A stretch of DNA of 64,000 nt, taken from the NCBI GenBank assembly GCA_036381015.1, contig DASVDR010000015.1, positions 16,675 to 80,674 on the forward strand, written 5' to 3'. Below the pieces are notes generated by a model that saw nothing but the letters and a program-made list of their open reading frames with translations, was not told the DNA's origin and made no database searches. Positions 42,263 through 51,832 of this stretch are shown here, in pieces; the stretch's first letter is position 1; the number at the start of each line of letters is the position of its first letter. The stretch is from Gammaproteobacteria bacterium (GTDB lineage Bacteria; Pseudomonadota; Gammaproteobacteria; Steroidobacterales; Rariloculaceae). The position numbers were made by a program, and so were the translations under genes.

Positions 42263-44935
42263 TTATCGTCGTACCACAATGCTGGTTTGAGTGACCAACG
42301 GGCCAAACTCGTCCCTGCCAACGCCCTTGGGGGCGGTCGGGATTACCAGTTTCACCCAGACGGCATCCGGACCCTTGAAATACGAAGTCTCGGTCGCCTT
42401 GCGCAGGGCGTCGAGGCTGTCCTGCTGCTTCCCGGAGGTCGCGCTGGTGAAACCCGGCAGCTCGAACACGACCCATGAGCCTTCGGCCATTTCAGTCAAA
42501 CTGATGGCAACTTCCGGTCTCTCGGTCTTCACGCGGATCTCGGTGCCGGCGCGCACAGTGCTCTGGTTGGCCGTGATCTGGAAGTCCTTGCCATTGCGGC
42601 TCAGGGTAATTGGCTGTTGAGGAGCAGCCGCCCGCGCAGGACCGGCCCCCCGCGCAGGAGCGCCCCCCCGCGCAGCCGCAGCTGACCGCACAGGAACATC
42701 GGGCAGCGCAAGAACGGCCCCCCTCGTGGGTCCGGGCCTCGGCATGCTGAACCGAATGCGTCCTATATCACCCGTGCACACAGAGGCGTTCCAGCTGGGA
42801 TGAATCTCGCAGGTGTCGTCCGTGGCGACGCTGTCGTTCTCGCCGTCGTGGAGCAGGATATAGGAGTCAGGGATGCCGGTCGTCGAACCGTCCAGGTCGT
42901 GGATCGCCAGGCTCCGGTAGGCCACGGCATTCCGGTTGTCACTATCGAACCTCGGGTCGATTTTCGGAAAGTACACGGGCTTGGCATTGACGAACTTCGC
43001 ACCCTTGACGGTGTTTTCGGTGGTAACCCCGGCGCCCGTATACAACAGCCATGTAAGCGCGCCTGATCCGCGCAGCTCGTTGCCCTGGAAATTCACGAAG
43101 GTCGTGTTAACAACGTCATGACGATAGTCGTAGTACTCATAGGCGTGGATCGGGTAATCCGGAATCAGAGGCTTCGGCAGGCTGCGGCCGTAGGCCTTTT
43201 CCTCCGGCGTCCCGGGGTTGCCGACGTTCTCGGTTTCGCCCACGAACAGCGAATCGACCACCCGTGACGTAAACAAGTCATCGCCGAAGGAACCGCTTGA
43301 ATGCGTAAAACCTATGGCATTGTCCGCCGACTTCAGGTTCCTGAAGACGTGCAGTTCGCCTCGGCCCCAGACGCCGCCATTGCGGTTCTTGTAGGTGGTG
43401 AGGTTCTCGAAGTGCGCCTCCACGCCTTTGCTGTTCGGGTCGGCAGGGTTTTCCTTGGGCATGTACGAGGGACCGGCCAAGCCGAAGGTGTTTTCCGCAT
43501 TGATGTTCCGGTCGAACATGAACCCGTCGTAGTTGGAGTGGGCCACGTTGCCCCGGAACTCGCGCAGCGGCGTGCGGCGCGGCCAGATCGCTTGCGCGAT
43601 CGCCGCGCCCTCGAACTGACCGATTGGGTGCTCGGGCAGCGACATCCAGAAGCCGTTCGCATCGGAACCGGCGGCCACATTGTCGATGAAGGTGTTGTCC
43701 GGATTCGTGATCCAGTAAGACGCGACCGTGTTGTCCGAAGGCAGCAGGGTGTCCCCGCCAAAAAAGCTGGCCTCCCTGTAAGCCTGGCGATTCTCGTTCG
43801 CAAAGCTTCTCTCTCCGTTTGGGGCGAGATTGACCGGCTGGCAGGGCTTGGCCGGATGGCACTTGGTCTGGATGGCCAGGTTCCTGACGAACTCGTTGCC
43901 ATGCTCGATGCCGTCCTCGAGGAAGAAGCAGTGACCGACGTTGTTGTAGGTCACGTTGTTCTCGATTCTCACGTTGTGCGTGCCGTGCACCGTCACGCAG
44001 CGGTTGAAGGTGTCATGGATGGCCGAGTTCTTGATGTACTGGCCCTTCGCATCCCCGACGAGGTGCCAGTGAATCGGATATCGGGCAAGGGTCAGGTGCT
44101 GGCCCATGAGATTGAGCTCGACGCCCGAGACGTACATCTCGCTGCCCGGCATCGCCATGATGTGGCCGCCGAAGTACGACTCCTCGGCGTCCTCCGATGC
44201 CTGGATCTTGATGTTGCGCGTGAGCAGGCCCACTTCGCCGCGCTCGTCCACGTCGAAGGTAATCTTGCCGAAATGCATGTACTCGAGCGGCTTGTCGAGC
44301 GTGATCGTGTTGCCGCGGATCGCCGTGATCTTGCGGACCTCGGCCTGGCGCGGATCGTAGTCCGTCGACGCGAGCACGATCTCGTCGCCGACGCGCCAGC
44401 CCGAGGCATCGAGAACCTGAATCTGCGTGGCGCCCTTCTCGGCCGTCGCCGAGAGCTTCGTCCAGGCGTTCGTCCGATCGCCGTGCAGGCTCAGCGTGCC
44501 GCCCGCGATCATGATGCCGCGATCGTTCATGCCGCCCATCACGGCTTCATTGGGGACGTTGTTGACGAAGGTGATGGTCGCGTTGCGGGTGTGTGGACGG
44601 GCTTCGGTGCCGATCTCCAACTCGCCGTGCAGCATGATCCACTCCGTGGTCAGCTCCAGATCGGCGTCGTTCGAGAAGGTGAGCTTGCCGTCGATGGAGA
44701 GACCGCCCAGAGCCGGGGGGCTGACATCGAGGATCACGTGCTGGTCCTTGGCGATGATGACCTTGTCGCCGGCGGCCGGAACCTTGTGATTTGGCCAAGT
44801 GGCAGGATCGGACCATTTTGTCGCCTGGACTGCTGGCGCTCTTGCGTTCTGGGCCTGGACGACGCCGAATGCGCCGCCGAGCAGGACCACCGGAACCAGC
44901 GATGCAAGCAGGACCGAGCGAGACCTTCGACTCAT
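42263..44935 (-). CDS. secreted G8-domain / parallel beta-helix protein (CEMIP/TMEM2-like architecture)
   Basis: ATG at 44935 (MSRRSRSVLLASLVPVVLLGGAFGVVQA). G8-type opening KWSDPATWPNHKVPAAGDKVIIAKDQHVILDV...LSIDGKLTF. Followed by beta-helix repeats (HWHLVGD, HDTFNRCVTVHGTHNVRIENNV, NVGHCFFLEDG). 890 aa. Confidence 0.8.
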   Translation of the reverse strand: MSRRSRSVLLASLVPVVLLGGAFGVVQAQNARAPAVQATKWSDPATWPNHKVPAAGDKVIIAKDQHVILDVSPPALGGLSIDGKLTFSNDADLELTTEWIMLHGELEIGTEARPHTRNATITFVNNVPNEAVMGGMNDRGIMIAGGTLSLHGDRTNAWTKLSATAEKGATQIQVLDASGWRVGDEIVLASTDYDPRQAEVRKITAIRGNTITLDKPLEYMHFGKITFDVDERGEVGLLTRNIKIQASEDAEESYFGGHIMAMPGSEMYVSGVELNLMGQHLTLARYPIHWHLVGDAKGQYIKNSAIHDTFNRCVTVHGTHNVRIENNVTYNNVGHCFFLEDGIEHGNEFVRNLAIQTKCHPAKPCQPVNLAPNGERSFANENRQAYREASFFGGDTLLPSDNTVASYWITNPDNTFIDNVAAGSDANGFWMSLPEHPIGQFEGAAIAQAIWPRRTPLREFRGNVAHSNYDGFMFDRNINAENTFGLAGPSYMPKENPADPNSKGVEAHFENLTTYKNRNGGVWGRGELHVFRNLKSADNAIGFTHSSGSFGDDLFTSRVVDSLFVGETENVGNPGTPEEKAYGRSLPKPLIPDYPIHAYEYYDYRHDVVNTTFVNFQGNELRGSGALTWLLYTGAGVTTENTVKGAKFVNAKPVYFPKIDPRFDSDNRNAVAYRSLAIHDLDGSTTGIPDSYILLHDGENDSVATDDTCEIHPSWNASVCTGDIGRIRFSMPRPGPTRGAVLALPDVPVRSAAAARGGAPARGAGPARAAAPQQPITLSRNGKDFQITANQSTVRAGTEIRVKTERPEVAISLTEMAEGSWVVFELPGFTSATSGKQQDSLDALRKATETSYFKGPDAVWVKLVIPTAPKGVGRDEFGPLVTQTSIVVRR

Positions 44936-45405
44936 GGCGATACCCCTCCCCCCGCGATGGTCTGAATCGAGCCCAACATCCGTGAGTGGGAGATTAGCGC
45001 GGCTGTCCAGCTTTCGGCCAGCCACAGGGCGCGACGAAGCTCCACTCGCGCAAGACGATTACCTTTCGGGTCGGCAACAAACCGGTCACGATGTCGCTCG
45101 AGGCTACGATGCGGATAGTGTGTATAAGGGCCCTTATGTGAGCTGGCACGGAGCGAGCGAGCCTGCAAGGGGCGTCCGCCGAGCCCGGGCGGGAGGTGCG
45201 TACCGCAACAACGGGGCGATGCACTCGGTCGTGATCTCGACGGCCGGGGGCGTGAGCGCCGAAGCCGCCACGCGTGATCTTCCGTCACCCCGAGGGCGAG
45301 CGCTGGGCGTTCTTCGCGCCGGCGATCGCCGCACGCTGATCGCAGCCTCGCGCCGGAGCCGGCGAGCTCCGCCGCTGCACCGAGCGCTCGCTTGCCGCGA
45401 GCGGC

Positions 45406-45789
45406 TCAGCAGTTCTGCGGGCGGGCCGAAACGACCGTGCCGTCGCCGAGCGTGACCTGTCAGATCTAGCCCGACATCGAACCGTTGCGAGCGCGGCTCG
45501 CTTCGACGGTGAGGTGCTGGCCGATAGGCCCCTCGAATGCGGGCTGTCGACGTTGCGGTTTCGAAAGAAGCCGGCGGCGGCCCTTCGAACGACCAGGGTT
45601 CGACCGCGCCGTCCTCGTCGACATCGACATAGATGTAGATGTGCGGGTTGCGCCAATCGAGCTCCGCAAGCGTGCCGATTTGCGTGACGACTTGGTTGAA
45701 GTCGAACATCGCCGATATGTTGTGATGCGCGAAGGCGGATCCGGCCGAGAGGAGAACGAGATCGAGGGACCGAAGGCAGGCGGGCTTCA
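45406..45789 (-). pseudogene. decayed DUF6152-like gene
   Basis: ATG at 45789 after AAGGAA. MKPACLRSLDLVLLSAGSAFAHHNISAMFDF...WRNPHIYIYVDVDEDGAVEPWSFEG parallels the gene at 3581-3973. The frame changes about 45560-45600. The tail reads GQHLTVEASRARNGSMSG*I*QVTLGDGTVV, with in-frame TAG (45466-45468) and TGA (45460-45462). Confidence 0.65.
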
Positions 45790-46064
45790 TCTGACGTTCC
45801 TTGAGGTTAGAGGCGACATTCTCGGTCGCGATAACATTAGGAGCATCATGGGCCGGTTGTCCGATGCGGCTTGCTTCGGCGCAATTTGCTCTTCCGAAGC
45901 AACGTTTCAGATCAACGGCGGCCTGACGCAGGCGGACAGAAGGCACGAATCCCGTTTGGGAAGGGCACCGACGCTCCCGCCTGCGCACTATTCGCTTCCG
46001 GAGTACCGAATACCGCCTGTCGACTACTTCTTACTCTTGCCTGCCGTCGAGGACGCCACTGGTG

Positions 46065-46803
46065 TCAGAAGATCGTGGAGCACACCATGCCCACTCCAGC
46101 TCGCCTTGGCCGTTGCACGCTCGGCCCGCGGCCACGTCCGCGATGAGTAGAAAATCGCAGCTTGGATGTAGTTGCTGACTTGTCGTCGTCGACTTCGCTC
46201 GCCACCTCATCAAAGGCATCGGAAAACAGCTGCTCGAGATCGGGCTCCTCTGTCACGAGTGCTGCCTTCGGCATGATCGATGACTTGGCCTCGTTGAGGA
46301 CAAGGTCGTAGCTGCGCAAGGCCGGAATGATCGCGCGAAGCACCTTCTCGCCCTCATCGACGTTCCTACATATATGTCATCCACGTAGCGAGCCGAGGGC
46401 ACATTAAGTTCCTTCAGCATAAGATCGATAGGCGCGAGGTAATAGTTTCCGAACAGATCTGAGGGAAACATTCCCTGCAAAATACCGCGTGAATTGCGCT
46501 CACCCGTGTAGCGGGCAAGAACAGCTTCAAGCCTTGATGCCAACCCGTGAGGGTACCCGGCATCCTCGAGCACGTTGATGAGTTTGTGCTGATTGAGCGA
46601 GCCGAAGCAATTCGCCACGTCGAGCTTCAAAACGTAGCGAATGGCCGATGTTGGGACTTGCGGTAGATGAAGTTGATGTGCGGTGCGTAGATGAAATCCG
46701 ATCGTAGGTCGTGAACGATGCGCGCAAGCGCTAGTTTCCAATTGATCTGCTTCAGCAGAGCAGCATCAAGACCGAACTGGGCGCCGACTTCCTGAGGGGA
46801 CAT
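46065..46803 (-). pseudogene. decayed reverse transcriptase (defence/Abi-type RT remnant)
   Basis: Three frames join. (1) MSPQEVGAQFGLDAALLKQINWKLALARIVHDLRSDFIYAPHINFIYRKS (from ATG 46803). (2) IRYVLKLDVANCFGSLNQHKLINVLE...GILQGMFPSDLFGNYYLAPID...SARYVDDIY, carrying the RT motifs and the YVDD catalytic box. (3) NVDEGEKVLRAIIPALRSYDLVLNEAKSSIMPK. Shifts lie near 46630-46660 and 46365-46375. The C-terminal part appears lost. Low GC. Confidence 0.7.
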
Positions 46804-46972
46804 AGAGCTAGCGGTGCTAGTGCTACTAACGGCAGCAAAACCTCCCTACCGCCGTTCGCCGATCGCGGCTCGAGCTGACAACAAAAGGTGCCAGCCCGTT
46901 TTGAGCGCGGAGGCGACACGGAGGATGAGCGAAGCGTAGTACGTACTCTCGTTCAACACCACCTTGAGCCGT

Positions 46973-48901
46973 TCACGTTCCTCGTGGACGAACGCGAACC
47001 CCGAGCCGCTGACGAACTTCTTCGCGCACGTCGAACTCCACCTCAGCCTCGATCTCGAGGGTCACGACGATCGCGAAACGAATGTCGAGATCCGGGTCCA
47101 AATTTCCCGTTCCATCCTTGCACTGCACTCTTATCGGCATGGTCGCGTGCTCGTCATACGTCGGCGTTGTCCTACTATCTGCAACAAGTCTGCGCGACCA
47201 AACGGTTCCATGACCGATCATGTTGTTGCCTGGCCCAACAGACTTAAGTTTGAGGTACCAGCCGTCATCGCGTTCTTCATCTACTTCGCCGTCGTGTCCA
47301 GCTGCCACGGCTTCGAGTGCAGCCATCCGATACCGCGCGCGCGTTAGGGTGACTGGCGAAAACCAGGCGATCGTAACGCGCAGCGACCTAGGTACTTTGC
47401 GCGCCGACAGCGACGGCGGGAGCGGTACGTCGAATATCTTCGCTTGATCGAGCCTCACGTCACCCAATCCCACAAGCGTCACGCCGGTTTTAGGGGCCTC
47501 TATCATCATTTCAGGAGCTAGGACGCCGTACCCGTAACGGCGAGCGACTTCCGCTTTCGCGCGGCGGTGCTGATGAAGGCCTAGCCTCGCGTACTCGGCG
47601 GCATAAAGGCGCTCCGCACTTTCTGGCCACTTCGATGCATTCACGGCCAACGCGCGTGTTAGAAGGGCGACGTCGCGTCGCGACAACTCAATGCCCTCAT
47701 ACGGGCCACCCTCTTCGGTGAGAGCCTCCGCGCATTGGAGAAGGGCGCGCGTAGTCAAAGCTGCCGCACAGCTTGTGCCGCAAGTCCTTTGAAAGGGAAC
47801 GCGCAACGCCAGGTTTGGCGAAGCCACGTGCAACCCCGTGCGCTGTGAGGGGGACAATACGCGCAAACGGGTGCTCTGCCGCGAGGGATACACGCGGACT
47901 TCATGCACTCCCCCAACAGTCAAGAAGTCGGGTTTGATTGCTCCGAACGGTCCGAGCCCCATAGCGCTGGACACGGCAGGTAGATCGTCGTCGTCCGTAT
48001 CGATGCGCAGGATTCCGGCAACCATTGGTGGATTACCGGGAGCCAGATCACACGAGACCGCACCAACGGTTAGGGCATTTAGGGCCTCGCCTGGCGCAAG
48101 AAGAGACCTTTCATAGACAGTTTCGCGCAAAAAGGCGTCGACGACCGCCCTCCGTTCTTCTACGGTTGCGGTTTCGAAATCGGCGTGGTGGTATGCGAGA
48201 AGAAGTTCTTCGCTGACGTTGCCCGCGGAAATAACAAACAGCACGCCTTCTTTTGCCGACCACCAGTCTATTAGACGCGCCAGCGAGCTAATGCGCCCGG
48301 CGAACCGTGACTGGAAAACGCCAATTGCTAGATTTACAACAAAAACATCTGGCGCATATGCCTCCGCACCGGAGAAGATCCGAACCAACGCGACGTGGAT
48401 CAAATCGACGAGCAGCCGGTCCCGAGGTGACCGCTCGTCACCATCAGCGTGGACCAGCAACGGCACGCTCACGATCCGCGACTCACGCAAGGGCGCTCCA
48501 TCCGCCACTAGATCACCCCTCAGGATCAGCGACGCCATGCTCGTGGCGTGGTAGCGCTGTTCAACTGGGGTCATTGGAACCAGTCCGTGCACGTCCTCGA
48601 TTACGACGCCGCCGGCCAAACTAGGGTGAGCTGCCACAGGGGTACCGTCGAACAGCGCGGCCCGCAGAGGCCCATCGGGATTCGGTAGCAGCTCAGTCGC
48701 GTATTCGTTGGGCGGTCCATCGTCTGCTCGCGGAGCGAGGCCGATTGTCTGGGGCAGAATGAACTGAATCCCGTCTAGGATGGCAAGGCCACTGACGTCA
48801 AACGGGTCGTCGATGAGCGCACGAGTCACCCGAGCGCTCAGCCCAACGAGCAATGCGTCATACACAAAGTCATCGGCAACGATAGAGCTACGATCCACCA
48901 C
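46973..48901 (-). CDS. S8 family (subtilase) serine peptidase domain, IetS-like; 3' segment of a split gene
   Basis: 642-aa ORF. Asp block AALFDGTPVAAHPSL, His block YHATSMASLIL, oxyanion/Asn blocks VVNLAIG and FVISAGN, Ser block CGTSCAAALTT. The long C-terminal extension ends WFSPVTLTRARYRMAALE.... Confidence 0.85.
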   Translation of the reverse strand: MVDRSSIVADDFVYDALLVGLSARVTRALIDDPFDVSGLAILDGIQFILPQTIGLAPRADDGPPNEYATELLPNPDGPLRAALFDGTPVAAHPSLAGGVVIEDVHGLVPMTPVEQRYHATSMASLILRGDLVADGAPLRESRIVSVPLLVHADGDERSPRDRLLVDLIHVALVRIFSGAEAYAPDVFVVNLAIGVFQSRFAGRISSLARLIDWWSAKEGVLFVISAGNVSEELLLAYHHADFETATVEERRAVVDAFLRETVYERSLLAPGEALNALTVGAVSCDLAPGNPPMVAGILRIDTDDDDLPAVSSAMGLGPFGAIKPDFLTVGGVHEVRVYPSRQSTRLRVLSPSQRTGLHVASPNLALRVPFQRTCGTSCAAALTTRALLQCAEALTEEGGPYEGIELSRRDVALLTRALAVNASKWPESAERLYAAEYARLGLHQHRRAKAEVARRYGYGVLAPEMMIEAPKTGVTLVGLGDVRLDQAKIFDVPLPPSLSARKVPRSLRVTIAWFSPVTLTRARYRMAALEAVAAGHDGEVDEERDDGWYLKLKSVGPGNNMIGHGTVWSRRLVADSRTTPTYDEHATMPIRVQCKDGTGNLDPDLDIRFAIVVTLEIEAEVEFDVREEVRQRLGVRVRPRGT

Positions 48902-49581
48902 GCGCCCGCCCAGCTGGCGTACTCTCTCCTCCGTCTCTGCTCGCCATGCCGCTCTCTTTTGTGGGCTGTGCGGGGAACCACTTCTAGCTCGAGAAGTACT
49001 TCCTCATCGTCGTCTAGAGGGAGTCGATCGCGCAGCGCCGCTCGCACTCCTTCAGGAAATCGATCTTGCGGACCCCACGGTCGCAATTCGATCAGAAGAT
49101 CGAAGAGATTCCACCACGGCGTCAAACCGTGCGGCGCGTCGTCACCACGCTGGTATGCGCGCCACATGCCGAGCATGTCTCTGAAAGCCTCGATTGTCGG
49201 GATGGTCGCGTATAGAGTTGGCGTCAGCGTCTCAGTACCCTTGGCTGGTAAGAAATCTTCGCTCGGTCCAATCGGGTCGCGCTCCATCTCCAAGACAATT
49301 TCGAGCCCGGCGGCGCGGGCGACTCGAGCGAAGTTCTGAATTGCGGCCGCCGTGACGAATACGAGTGCTCGCTCTGGCGCAATGCCGTTAGGGTCTCGAC
49401 GAAGCTCGACCGCTGGATCGTCTGTCGTCAGTGCCTGAGCTAGCCGGTCGAACGCTCGTCGGAAGCGCTGTCCCTGCCTTTCCCTCCCCGGACCCTTTGC
49501 ACGGGGGATTTTCCGTGGTGCCCCGGTCTGCCGCTGCGCATTACGTGGATTGGCTAGTCGAAGGATCGATCGCTCGGGCAT
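48838..49581 (-). CDS. N-terminal non-protease domain of the IetS-like peptidase (5' segment of split gene)
   Basis: ATG at 49581 (MPERSILRLANPR...ERALVFVTAAAIQNFARVARAAGLEIVLEME...LIELRPWGPQDRF...LLELEVVPRTAHK). The S8 frame is open upstream to 49003 and reads ...QKRAAWRAETEERVRQLGGRVVDRSSIVADDFVYDALL. One indel between 48841 and 49003 (A4 run at 48957-48960) would therefore fuse both ORFs. Confidence 0.6.
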   Translation of the reverse strand: MPERSILRLANPRNAQRQTGAPRKIPRAKGPGRERQGQRFRRAFDRLAQALTTDDPAVELRRDPNGIAPERALVFVTAAAIQNFARVARAAGLEIVLEMERDPIGPSEDFLPAKGTETLTPTLYATIPTIEAFRDMLGMWRAYQRGDDAPHGLTPWWNLFDLLIELRPWGPQDRFPEGVRAALRDRLPLDDDEEVLLELEVVPRTAHKRERHGEQRRRREYASWAGAWWIVALSLPMTLCMTHCSLG

Positions 49582-50563
49582 CGTCGGTTGTGCTCTCAGG
49601 GCTGCTGGGCCGTTGGCGCCACACGCGCACACGATCGTCGATTACGGTGCGCAGTGAAACTGCTCCCTGATTCAACACCCAGCGCCGGTGAAGGTCCGAG
49701 AAGAAATTCTCAGCTTCGGAAAAACTTGTGAGACGCAGTACCGAACAAAGGCGCTTAGCGGTGTAACCGGGAGGTTCGGAAAACTCCTTTAGCCGCCCTG
49801 CGAAATAGGCTTGCAGCTGCTCGTTCGACGGACGATCGAGCTCAAGATGCAGTTGGAACCGCCGCCATGTGGCGCGATCGAGAAGCTCGGGATGGTTCGT
49901 TGCCGCTACAACGACACAGTACGAAGGCAGATCATCAAGCTGGAGCAGAAACGTAGTGACAACTCGCTTTATCTCTCCGGTCTCGTGGATGTCACCTCTT
50001 TCCTTCGCGATCGCGTCGAATTCATCGAAAAATAGAACGCATGGCTGCATTTGAACGAAATCGAACAACTTCCGAAGGCGTTGCGCGGTCTCGCCCAGAT
50101 AACTGGTCACGACGGCGTCATACCGCACGACGAAGAATGGCAACGACAGTTCATATGCCAGGCATTCGGCGAGGGACGTCTTTCCGTTCCCAGGAGGACC
50201 CGACAGAAGCACCCGATGACGAGGCTCCAGGCCGTGTGCCCGAAGAACATCGGCGCGCCTCTGTTCTTCAATTAGTTCATCGCAGGCTGAACGAACTTGT
50301 GTCGCGAGGTGCAGCAATGCTAGTGGCCTACACGGCTCGCGGCGAACGATTCCCGTGCTGCCGTCACTGCGTGGCACGCGACGCAAGGCGTTCCCGTTCG
50401 ATGTGGATGCCGATTCAAGAGCCCGCGCAATTCGATCCGCTACACCATCATGCTTCTTTGCCCTCTCATCGGCGGCGATCGCGGCGGCTACCGTGCGCAG
50501 TCGGTCCGTGTCGCCTTTGACGCCAGCGCGCACGAGGTCGATCAAAAGGTCACTTCTCGTCAT
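49541..50563 (-). CDS. AAA+ ATPase, IetA-like
   Basis: 340 aa. Walker A LSGPPGNGKTS, Walker B CVLFFDEFDAI, sensor-1 VVVAATNHPELLD. Classical-clade AAA features with a ~110-aa N-terminal helical region. The 3' end overlaps the start of the peptidase gene. Confidence 0.85.
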   Translation of the reverse strand: MTRSDLLIDLVRAGVKGDTDRLRTVAAAIAADERAKKHDGVADRIARALESASTSNGNALRRVPRSDGSTGIVRREPCRPLALLHLATQVRSACDELIEEQRRADVLRAHGLEPRHRVLLSGPPGNGKTSLAECLAYELSLPFFVVRYDAVVTSYLGETAQRLRKLFDFVQMQPCVLFFDEFDAIAKERGDIHETGEIKRVVTTFLLQLDDLPSYCVVVAATNHPELLDRATWRRFQLHLELDRPSNEQLQAYFAGRLKEFSEPPGYTAKRLCSVLRLTSFSEAENFFSDLHRRWVLNQGAVSLRTVIDDRVRVWRQRPSSPESTTDDARAIDPSTSQST

Positions 50564-51359
50564 GCCGTCGATCCACCGGGGGCAGCCATCCTATCCCACG
50601 GCATAGTACGCGGATTACCGTTTTTTTGCGCGGCAAACCGGAAATTCGGCACGGATGCGTGGTTCCGGCGCACGGTTTCTCGGAATTGGCCAGGGCCGCC
50701 GCGCCGACTCGGCCGCGCGCGCTCGTCGGCTCTCGGCTGGGACTAGAGTGCAACCCCAGGCTGGCGGGCTCCGCGCCCCGGCCGAGGTGCTCGAGAATCC
50801 GCTCGATCGTCGTGAGCTCCTCGATGCTGGCAATCACACGAAGGCGGCCGCCGCAGCGCCGGCACGTCTCGATCTCGATGGCGAATACCCGCTTGAGGCG
50901 CTGCGCCCAAGTCAGGGCCCGTAGCCGGTCGGTGACGGATGCCTCGCCGCACTCACTGGCGAGGGCGGCGCGCGTTCTGGGCACAACCAGGGCCCGATCC
51001 GGGCTCGCCGGCGCAAACACCCCGTGATAGCGGATCAGGTGCGCGCGGGGCTTCGGCACGAGTGCGGCAAGGCGCGCGATAAAGTCCTCGGGCTCGAAGA
51101 TGACGTGCGTCGTACCGTCACGATAGGGCGTCTTCAATGCAGAGCGCACATTTCCGCCCTCGGTCAGCGACAGCCGCTCGGTGGCCACCGGTGGCCTTGC
51201 AACGTAGCACGCCAGGCGCTCGAGCTTGTCACGTTGCGAGGCCTTCGCGGCGATGCCCGTTCGCAATCCGTTGACGCGAATGTCCTCGTACCCCGTGCCC
51301 GGAACGTCAAACCGATCCCGGCGAGCGTGAAGCCGGACGCTCGTGCTCGTTTCACGCAA
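50550..51359 (-). mobile_element. 5'-truncated IS91-family (rolling-circle Y1/HUH) transposase gene remnant (contains repeat copy B at 51076-51195)
   Basis: Reads ...NGLRTGIAAKASQRDKLERLACYVARPPVATERLSLTEGGNVRSALKTPYRDGTTHVIFEPEDFIARLAALVPKPRAHLIRYHGVFAPAS...LTWAQRLKRVFAIEIETCRRCGGRLRVIASIEE...ILEHLG. This is the conserved C-terminal third of IS91/ISCR transposases. The catalytic N-terminal two thirds are absent. Confidence 0.75.
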
Positions 51360-51454
51360 TCGTCACGAACAATTAACGCGCTCTTCATGCATCGCCGCGG
51401 CGTGGCCCGTAGCGTATCGGCCGCTCGATCCCATCACCGCGCTGGAGAACCACC

Positions 51455-51832
51455 ATGAACGCTCGCCTCGATGCATCGAAACTCGTCTTCGGCTTCTTCG
51501 CATTCGCCGTGCTCGCAATCGCTCCGCGCTACGCGTTGACCGACGCGCCGCCCCCGCGCGGTCCGCAGATCGCGGTCTCCTACGCCGACCTGAACATGGC
51601 CTCCGCATCCGGTGTGCAGGCCTTGTACCGGCGCATCCAGCGGGCAGGCGACAGAGTGTGCGGGCCGCGGCCCGCGAACGCCGATCTCAGGCGGTTTGCC
51701 GCGTGGAACGGCTGCCGCGACGACGCGATCGCAGGCGCCGTCGGAGCCGTGAATCATCCGATGTTGACCGCCCTTCACCAGGGCAGGTCACCGGCCGCCG
51801 TGCTGGCCGGTGCGAGCGTGCCGCCGAAGTAG
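51455..51832 (+). CDS. UrcA family protein
   Basis: 125 aa with a signal/TM, then QIAVSYADLNMASASGVQALYRRIQRAGDRVCG, matching the UrcA signature as I recall it. Confidence 0.65.
   Translation: MNARLDASKLVFGFFAFAVLAIAPRYALTDAPPPRGPQIAVSYADLNMASASGVQALYRRIQRAGDRVCGPRPANADLRRFAAWNGCRDDAIAGAVGAVNHPMLTALHQGRSPAAVLAGASVPPK

Follow-up and report, generated by a model that had tools for sequence, protein, structure and literature searches.

A frameshifted IetAS module in a low-GC, probably decaying patch of a Rariloculaceae metagenome-assembled genome

We analysed a 64,000-nucleotide (nt) stretch of a metagenome-assembled genome (MAG) of a Gammaproteobacteria bacterium (Rariloculaceae; GenBank assembly GCA_036381015.1, contig DASVDR010000015.1, positions 16,675 to 80,674 of the forward strand), hereafter the window, in which two co-directional minus-strand genes at 46973-50563 encode an AAA+ ATPase and an S8-family subtilase. 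Judged by sequence, this locus is an IetAS module, i.e., a pair of neighbouring ietA and ietS genes in the PADLOC sense, and it falls in a clade that is diverged but already catalogued. We consider it likely that the locus is a broken IetAS copy, with a dead ietS and an open ietA, which was acquired horizontally and is now decaying. The ietS gene carries a single-nucleotide frameshift, and the module is most likely dead because of it.

Both gene products matched PADLOC profiles essentially end to end, bearing out the IetAS assignment proposed in an earlier note on this DNA. IetA matched PDLC04232 with E=8.1e-134 (residues 1-323 on profile positions 1-324 of 330), and IetS matched PDLC04233 in two collinear pieces, the 5' part with E=3.9e-50 (profile 1-220 of 855) and the 3' part with E=2.1e-156 (profile 232-850 of 855). 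When 5.8 billion clustered proteins were searched, hundreds of IetS homologs were recovered, each a single chain of 864-878 amino acids (aa); the closest, P0001 and P0002, are intact and 81-82% identical to the window protein; the closest IetA is 90% identical. The best specific NCBIfam families were NF042959 (IteA; 1.1e-64, 218.9 bits vs. an equivalog cut-off of 510) and NF042956 (IteS; 1.9e-11, 43 bits vs. an equivalog cut-off of 900), so that neither cut-off was reached; the intact homolog P0001 likewise fell below that of NF042956, at 35.6 bits.

Conservation of the gene pair was assessed in one genome per species across 80 loci (L009-L088), which span Alpha- and Gammaproteobacteria, Bryobacterales, Rhodothermales, Spirochaetia, Puniceicoccaceae, Bacteroidota, Dadabacteria, and Nitrospira, and 75 of which were testable, i.e., had the 5' flank present. 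An IetA homolog was found directly upstream of IetS in all 75, and the ATPase-protease order is thus conserved in unrelated genomes, a check that the earlier note had called for. Given this pairing and the end-to-end PADLOC matches, we regard the IetAS call as right. The other neighbours were variable and included TIR-domain genes, a relaxase, and housekeeping genes; strict pairing without a conserved third gene therefore marks ietAS as a self-contained mobile unit. Convergent TIR-domain genes do occur just downstream of an intact IetAS in two genomes (L004, 10735-12024, and L006, 10714-11922, both on the minus strand). As candidates for a conserved third gene these were rejected, being mutually unrelated and absent from the 80 loci, and they are defence-island context, not a conserved partner.

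In the window, the IetS start codon (ATG 49581) lies before the IetA stop (49541), which yields an overlap of 41 nt (49541-49581, minus strand), where ~40 nt had been read previously. Of the 75 testable loci, 53 have an overlap of exactly 32 nt; lengths of 35 or 41 nt occur elsewhere among the relatives, 41 nt being that of the window, L004, and L059. It is consistent with translational coupling of ietA and ietS, and its fixed length hints either at such coupling or at a conserved element within the overlap.

The frameshift was located by three-frame translation combined with protein and DNA alignment, and lies in a run of four C (48972-48975, minus strand) from which one base is missing, at codons Pro203/Thr204. 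The window DNA reads GTG GTT CC- CCG CAC AGC, compared with GTG GTT CCG ACG CAC AGC in the closest relative. Correspondingly, P0001 and P0002 read ...LELEVVP-THSAP(K/R)RA(A/V)WREETE..., and the window protein reads ...LELEVVP in one frame and then HSPQKRAAWRAETE... in the -1 frame. This 1-nt deletion divides the normally ~870-aa IetS into frames of 247 aa and 642 aa, and the uninterrupted ietS frame of ~870 codons that a functional IetAS requires is absent from the window. Programmed frameshifting and transcriptional slippage were considered and rejected (no slippery heptamer, a run of only four C, and all relatives being single open reading frames [ORFs]).

The 5' part of ietS (48976-49581, minus strand; codons 1-203) encodes the N-terminal alpha/beta region and is collinear with residues 1-203 of the intact homologs P0001 and P0002. 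Beyond the lesion, translation in this frame is out of register and ends at a stop at 48838, giving 247 aa from ATG 49581, which is the true start within an ORF spanning 48838-49632. The 3' part (46973-48971, minus strand) lies in the -1 frame and encodes the rest of a prodomain-like unit, the S8 domain, a helical linker, a C-terminal beta-sandwich, and a terminal helix; as listed, the 3' ORF (46973-48901, minus strand, 642 aa) starts at GTG 48901. Accordingly, of the subtilase gene described earlier as second in the pair, the protease motifs stand and the single open frame does not, its first 203 codons being in a different frame, and the non-protease N-terminal region measures ~300 aa instead of ~240 aa. 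The earlier note had hinted at the break solely through its word "frame-repaired".

Each of the S8 catalytic blocks that had been read from the sequence is present in the 3' ORF, in the order LFDGTP (catalytic Asp codon, 48647-48649), YHATSMAS (catalytic His codon, 48548-48550), VVNLAIG with ISAGN (oxyanion Asn codon, 48218-48220), and CGTSCAAA (catalytic Ser codon, 47771-47773), all on the minus strand. The four corresponding residues (D312, H345, N455, and S604) are unchanged in the window and invariant in 109-117 homologs, leaving the triad intact. The 3' ORF also matched Pfam Peptidase_S8 (PF00082; 1.5e-11, 44.6 bits vs. a cut-off of 21.8), over profile positions 107-288 only. Across the whole protein, conservation among 117 homologs reaches at least 98% at 156 positions, and the window IetS keeps every one of them; since no conserved residue has changed, this suggests that the break is recent. 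NCBI annotates 46973-48574 as HEX7080602.1, an "S8 family serine peptidase" of 533 aa, which was called from an internal Met and so misses the catalytic Asp; the same entry, from a third-party-assembled (TPA) Gammaproteobacteria bacterium MAG, was returned by the clustered-protein search as an exact match to the window IetS (P0004). The 5' fragment has no NCBI protein annotation, the accessions HEX7080602 and HEX7080603 being consecutive.

An independently assembled Logan contig (L003, from SRR25158368) covers window positions 44683-51020 and is 100% identical over ietA and ietS, including the lesion site, with the same split gene calls. Because this assembly is identical and the neighbouring genes are also dead (see below), the ietS lesion is probably real and not a sequencing error.

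In contrast to the dead ietS, the ietA gene is open. It encodes an intact 340-aa AAA+ ATPase of the classic clade (49541-50563, minus strand), the putative antitoxin or regulator partner, in which all three motifs cited in the earlier note were located: Walker A GPPGNGKT (aa 122-129, 50177-50200), Walker B VLFFDEFD (aa 176-183, 50015-50038), and sensor-1 VVAATN (aa 218-223, 49895-49912). To these we add pore-loop-1 SYLGE (50090-50104, with YLG at residues 155-157) and the Arg-finger motif WRRF (49856-49867), likewise on the minus strand, and the Walker A Lys, the Walker B Asp-Glu, sensor-1, and the Arg fingers are thus all present. Conservation among 70 homologs is at least 97% for residues Y155/L156/G157, K128, D180/E181, N223, and R234/R235. 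IetA matched Pfam AAA (PF00004) with E=7.5e-31 (107.7 bits vs. a gathering cut-off of 21.2), and its closest solved relatives in the PDB are the D2 domains of p97/NVL/Cdc48 (about 4e-45). Taken together, these features predict that IetA is most likely a hexameric unfoldase-type AAA+ protein whose Tyr-Leu-Gly pore loop and Arg fingers are intact. Two substitutions, T172M (50048-50050) and L205F (49949-49951), distinguish it from the 90%-identical relative in L004, at sites that are at least 97% conserved in the 70 homologs. As signs of IetA decay these were discarded, since 2 of ~98 conserved sites are too few to interpret; they may represent early antitoxin drift following loss of the toxin.

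The architecture of IetS was examined through an AlphaFold model of the intact homolog P0001 (pLDDT 90.5, pTM 0.93), which comprises alpha/beta units (residues 1-190), a beta-alpha-beta-beta-alpha-beta unit (194-277), a subtilase core (~300-650), a helical linker, a beta-sandwich (700-850), and a terminal helix. In this model, the Asp, His, Asn, and Ser residues occupy canonical subtilase secondary-structure positions. The best Foldseek matches were subtilase pro-forms, namely ProN-Tk-SP (3afg_B, E=1.9e-21) and PCSK9, both of which carry a propeptide and a C-terminal beta domain. PDB sequence searches with the intact homolog and with the family profile gave no match, only the fold comparison did, and neither these searches nor Foldseek returned a solved IetS structure. 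Direct reading of the basic, conserved IetS N-terminus revealed no signal peptide. IetS is thus most likely a cytoplasmic protease of zymogen-like (pro-subtilase-like) build.

The ietAS pair lies within a lower-GC patch of ~5.4 kb (about 46.0-51.4 kb) that, in our assessment, has probably been acquired horizontally and is now decaying. GC content is 0.595 in 46973-50563 vs. 0.672 across the rest of the window, in agreement with the A/T-rich stretch remarked on earlier. The patch borders were set from GC3 and gene content and are only approximate, because a tRNA search of the window found none and no convincing direct or inverted repeats flank the patch. Scans of 46000-51500 found no sigma-70-like promoter site and fewer terminator-like matches than the chance level.

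The pair had also been described as wedged between a dead reverse transcriptase (RT) and a truncated IS91 transposase in a defence-island context, and both flanks were recovered. Just downstream lies the remnant of a UG20-class defence-associated RT (46065-46803, minus strand), which itself upholds the defence-island description; three-frame translation shows that it retains YVDD, is split across three reading frames, and is truncated C-terminally. The stitched protein matched PADLOC RT_UG20 with E=6.3e-81 as far as profile position ~300 of 511, the C-terminal ~200 positions being missing; weak matches of the remnant to NCBIfam Drt/group II families were also seen. Its stop codon (46065-46067) is polymorphic, L003 having C for T at 46067 and reading ~50 extra codons. 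Next to it is a DUF6152 pseudogene (45134-45790, minus strand) with a frame switch near 45570 followed by two in-frame stops, in which stitching of the frames widens the Pfam match from profile positions 4-64 to 4-96 of 98. Upstream of ietA, an ISCR/IS91-family (Y2) rolling-circle transposase is represented by its C-terminal third (50777-51359, minus strand), the N-terminal two thirds being missing: the fragment matched NCBIfam ISCR_clade_Ia (E=1.4e-51) solely over profile positions 316-489 of 509, and Pfam Y2_Tnp over 101-179 of 183. Of 33 differences between the window and L003, 31 fall in 50811-51015, within this fragment, and L003 ends at 51020; such clustering suggests several diverged ISCR copies in the genome or population. 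Overall, four consecutive genes of the patch are dead or truncated, while host genes elsewhere in the window are uninterrupted over up to 4.1 kb.

Loss of IetS recurs across the clade. Among the 75 testable loci, IetS alone is disrupted in eight, both genes in two (L042 and L046), and IetA alone in one (L087). The ~10 disrupted IetS comprise four point nonsense mutations and six frameshifts or truncations, and IetA is open in 8 of the 10; two of the nonsense cases (L024 and L057) come from TPA MAGs of Bryobacterales and Actibacterium that, to judge by their contig names, were assembled with SPAdes. This pattern suggests toxin-first decay of a toxin-antitoxin pair, both in the clade and in the window, an order that is expected because loss of the toxin is harmless and loss of the antitoxin first is lethal.

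The toxin-antitoxin framework comes from experiments in other clades. On the Agrobacterium plasmid pTiC58, the roles of toxin and antitoxin fall to IetS and IetA, respectively, according to Yamamoto 2009 as cited in later papers (PMC13069673, PMC5006074), and SgiAT, the homolog of Salmonella genomic island 1 (SGI1), shows the same behaviour (PMC5006074). In Mycoplasma, deletion of the ATPase alone is lethal, while deletion of the protease or of both genes is viable (PMC8562856). Toxicity of a lone IetS and its neutralisation by IetA have been established in no systems other than those of pTiC58, SGI1, Mycoplasma, and E. coli variants (PMC5006074, PMC8562856, PMC13069673). With respect to phages, SPbeta YosG is the trigger of a Bacillus cereus IetAS, which works through abortive infection (bioRxiv 10.1101/2022.08.27.505566), defence by IetAS requires protease activity (PMC13069673), and such protease-dependent phage protection has likewise been reported in other clades (PMC13069673; bioRxiv 10.1101/2022.08.27.505566). 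The view in the earlier note that the mechanism is unresolved is thus partly overtaken: abortive infection, the YosG trigger, and the toxin and antitoxin roles have been published, whereas the substrate and the molecular mechanism were still called unknown in 2026 (PMC13069673).

A plausible sequence of events for an intact module can be outlined on this basis. Free IetS activity is toxic, as experiments in other clades indicate, and IetA, made just ahead of IetS from overlapping frames, would restrain it, with the IetA hexamer holding IetS probably by physical engagement. Should IetA be lost, titrated, or inhibited, whether through element loss or a phage trigger, IetS would be freed and could then cleave host proteins, bringing about growth arrest before phage maturation.

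Several observations weigh against our interpretation of the locus as a decaying toxin-antitoxin relic. The behaviour ascribed to this clade, toxin-antitoxin and anti-phage alike, is extrapolated from clades with 23% (IetS) and 38% (IetA) identity, the way in which IetA would restrain IetS is inferred in every IetAS clade, and the NCBIfam equivalog cut-offs were missed. The lesion affects one base within a short homopolymer of a MAG, and nothing else in IetS points to relaxed selection (of the 156 conserved sites, none is changed); an error common to two assemblies of the same reads would account for this, and is less likely. Finally, the 8:1 bias of IetS-only over IetA-only disruption comes from small counts and is statistically not strong, with IetS being 2.6 times longer, and several of the broken copies come from MAGs and are possible assembly errors.

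Among alternative explanations, the one that fares best concerns function: the module could be primarily a mobile-element addiction (stabilisation) cassette and not an anti-phage system, with the neighbouring defence RT being incidental. We regard this as possible but somewhat doubtful. It would fit the founding members, which stabilise the Ti plasmid and the SGI1 island (PMC13069673 ref. 61; PMC5006074), as well as the occurrence of a close homolog on the conjugative plasmid pMaD6, of another adjoining a relaxase, and of the ISCR fragment that abuts the window module. However, other family members protect against phages in experiments (PMC13069673; bioRxiv 10.1101/2022.08.27.505566), relatives adjoin TIR-domain genes, and the window copy adjoins a UG20 RT remnant. 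Moreover, addiction and anti-phage roles are not mutually exclusive.

The frameshift could alternatively be an assembly or sequencing artefact, in which case the organism would have an intact, working IetAS module; this we consider unlikely. A lone 1-nt indel within a C4 run, the retention of all conserved and catalytic IetS residues, the intact ietA, and the third-party-assembled source are all as an artefact would predict. Yet the independent Logan contig carries the same lesion, even if it may derive from the same reads, and three neighbouring genes are broken partly by stop-codon substitutions, which goes beyond indel errors. Furthermore, long genes in other parts of the 64-kb window are open, no intact allele of more than 82% identity exists among the 5.8 billion clustered proteins, and other genomes repeatedly carry a broken IetS.

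If the break is genuine, ietA might persist not as a decaying leftover but as a retained orphan antitoxin, i.e., an anti-addiction gene against incoming IetS toxins of plasmids and islands that bear related IetAS modules. We give this little credence; if true, the recurrent loss of IetS alone would reflect selection and not merely a tolerated order of decay. Most improbable of all is a tolerated split, in which the 247-aa fragment cooperates with a 642-aa product arising from re-initiation at GTG 48901, or the ribosome shifts frame, to give an active protease: the two frames do overlap by 64 nt (48838-48901) with the GTG start inside the overlap, and the conserved residues are all kept in both parts, but a natural split at this point occurs in none of 117 full-length homologs, residues ~204-227 would be lost or garbled, the required shift of -1 on 'U CCC C' has no X XXY YYZ heptamer, no strong Shine-Dalgarno sequence precedes GTG 48901, and a working two-piece IetS is unlikely because the break falls in the first strand/loop of the predicted beta-alpha-beta-beta-alpha-beta prodomain-like unit (model residues 194-277) and not at a domain boundary. 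On the reading of a broken copy, no full-length protease can be made and the toxin arm is most likely dead, and the window module is probably an inactive relic.

The locus ought to be annotated as an IetAS-family module whose ietS is a pseudogene. Beyond correct annotation its importance is small, and it holds no surprise for specialists. What is useful to studies of the IetAS mechanism comes from the clade survey, namely the strict, self-contained pairing and the conserved 32-nt overlap, along with the clade-level pro-subtilase-like build of IetS and unfoldase-type pore loop of IetA. The mechanism itself will be better addressed in intact relatives, such as P0001 and the pMaD6 genes, than in the window locus.

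Compared with known systems, the window module shares its overall plan with the founding IetAS of Agrobacterium tumefaciens pTiC58, in which the AAA+ gene also comes first and is followed, in the same direction, by an S8 subtilase of ~840-870 aa that is extended at both its N- and its C-terminus. The DSG/HGT/SAGN/TS motifs of the pTi IetS align with the D/H/N/S motifs of the window protein, and pTiC58 IetA aligns over residues 1-261, with identities of 38% for IetA and 23% for IetS. The two differ in that the pTi proteins score best on PADLOC PDLC02196 and PDLC02198 and the window proteins on PDLC04232 and PDLC04233, that the pTi genes abut whereas those of the window clade overlap by 32-41 nt, and that only the window ietS is frameshifted. 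The systems of Gao et al. 2020 and later work (B. cereus m1293, E. coli ECOR52; IteA/IteS) have the same two-domain architecture; by comparison, the window proteins are far below the equivalog cut-offs, and the window copy is broken and known from sequence alone.

SgiAT of SGI1 and TA132/133 of Mycoplasma mycoides also pair an AAA+ antitoxin with a subtilase toxin on chromosomal islands. In both, the toxin is dispensable and the antitoxin alone is not (PMC5006074, PMC8562856), which matches the state of the window; they belong to other clades, and the likeness rests on published descriptions. The ietHAS system (Liu-DS4), a variant of IetAS that includes an SNF2 helicase, has the IetA/IetS core in common (PMC13069673), whereas the window clade has neither a helicase nor a conserved third gene. 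Closest to the window is its own PDLC04232/PDLC04233 clade, which includes MALG_04621/04622 of Marinovum algicola pMaD6 and has the same overlap and domain layout; the window IetA is 66% identical to the pMaD6 gene, and the sole difference from the clade is the frameshift in the window.

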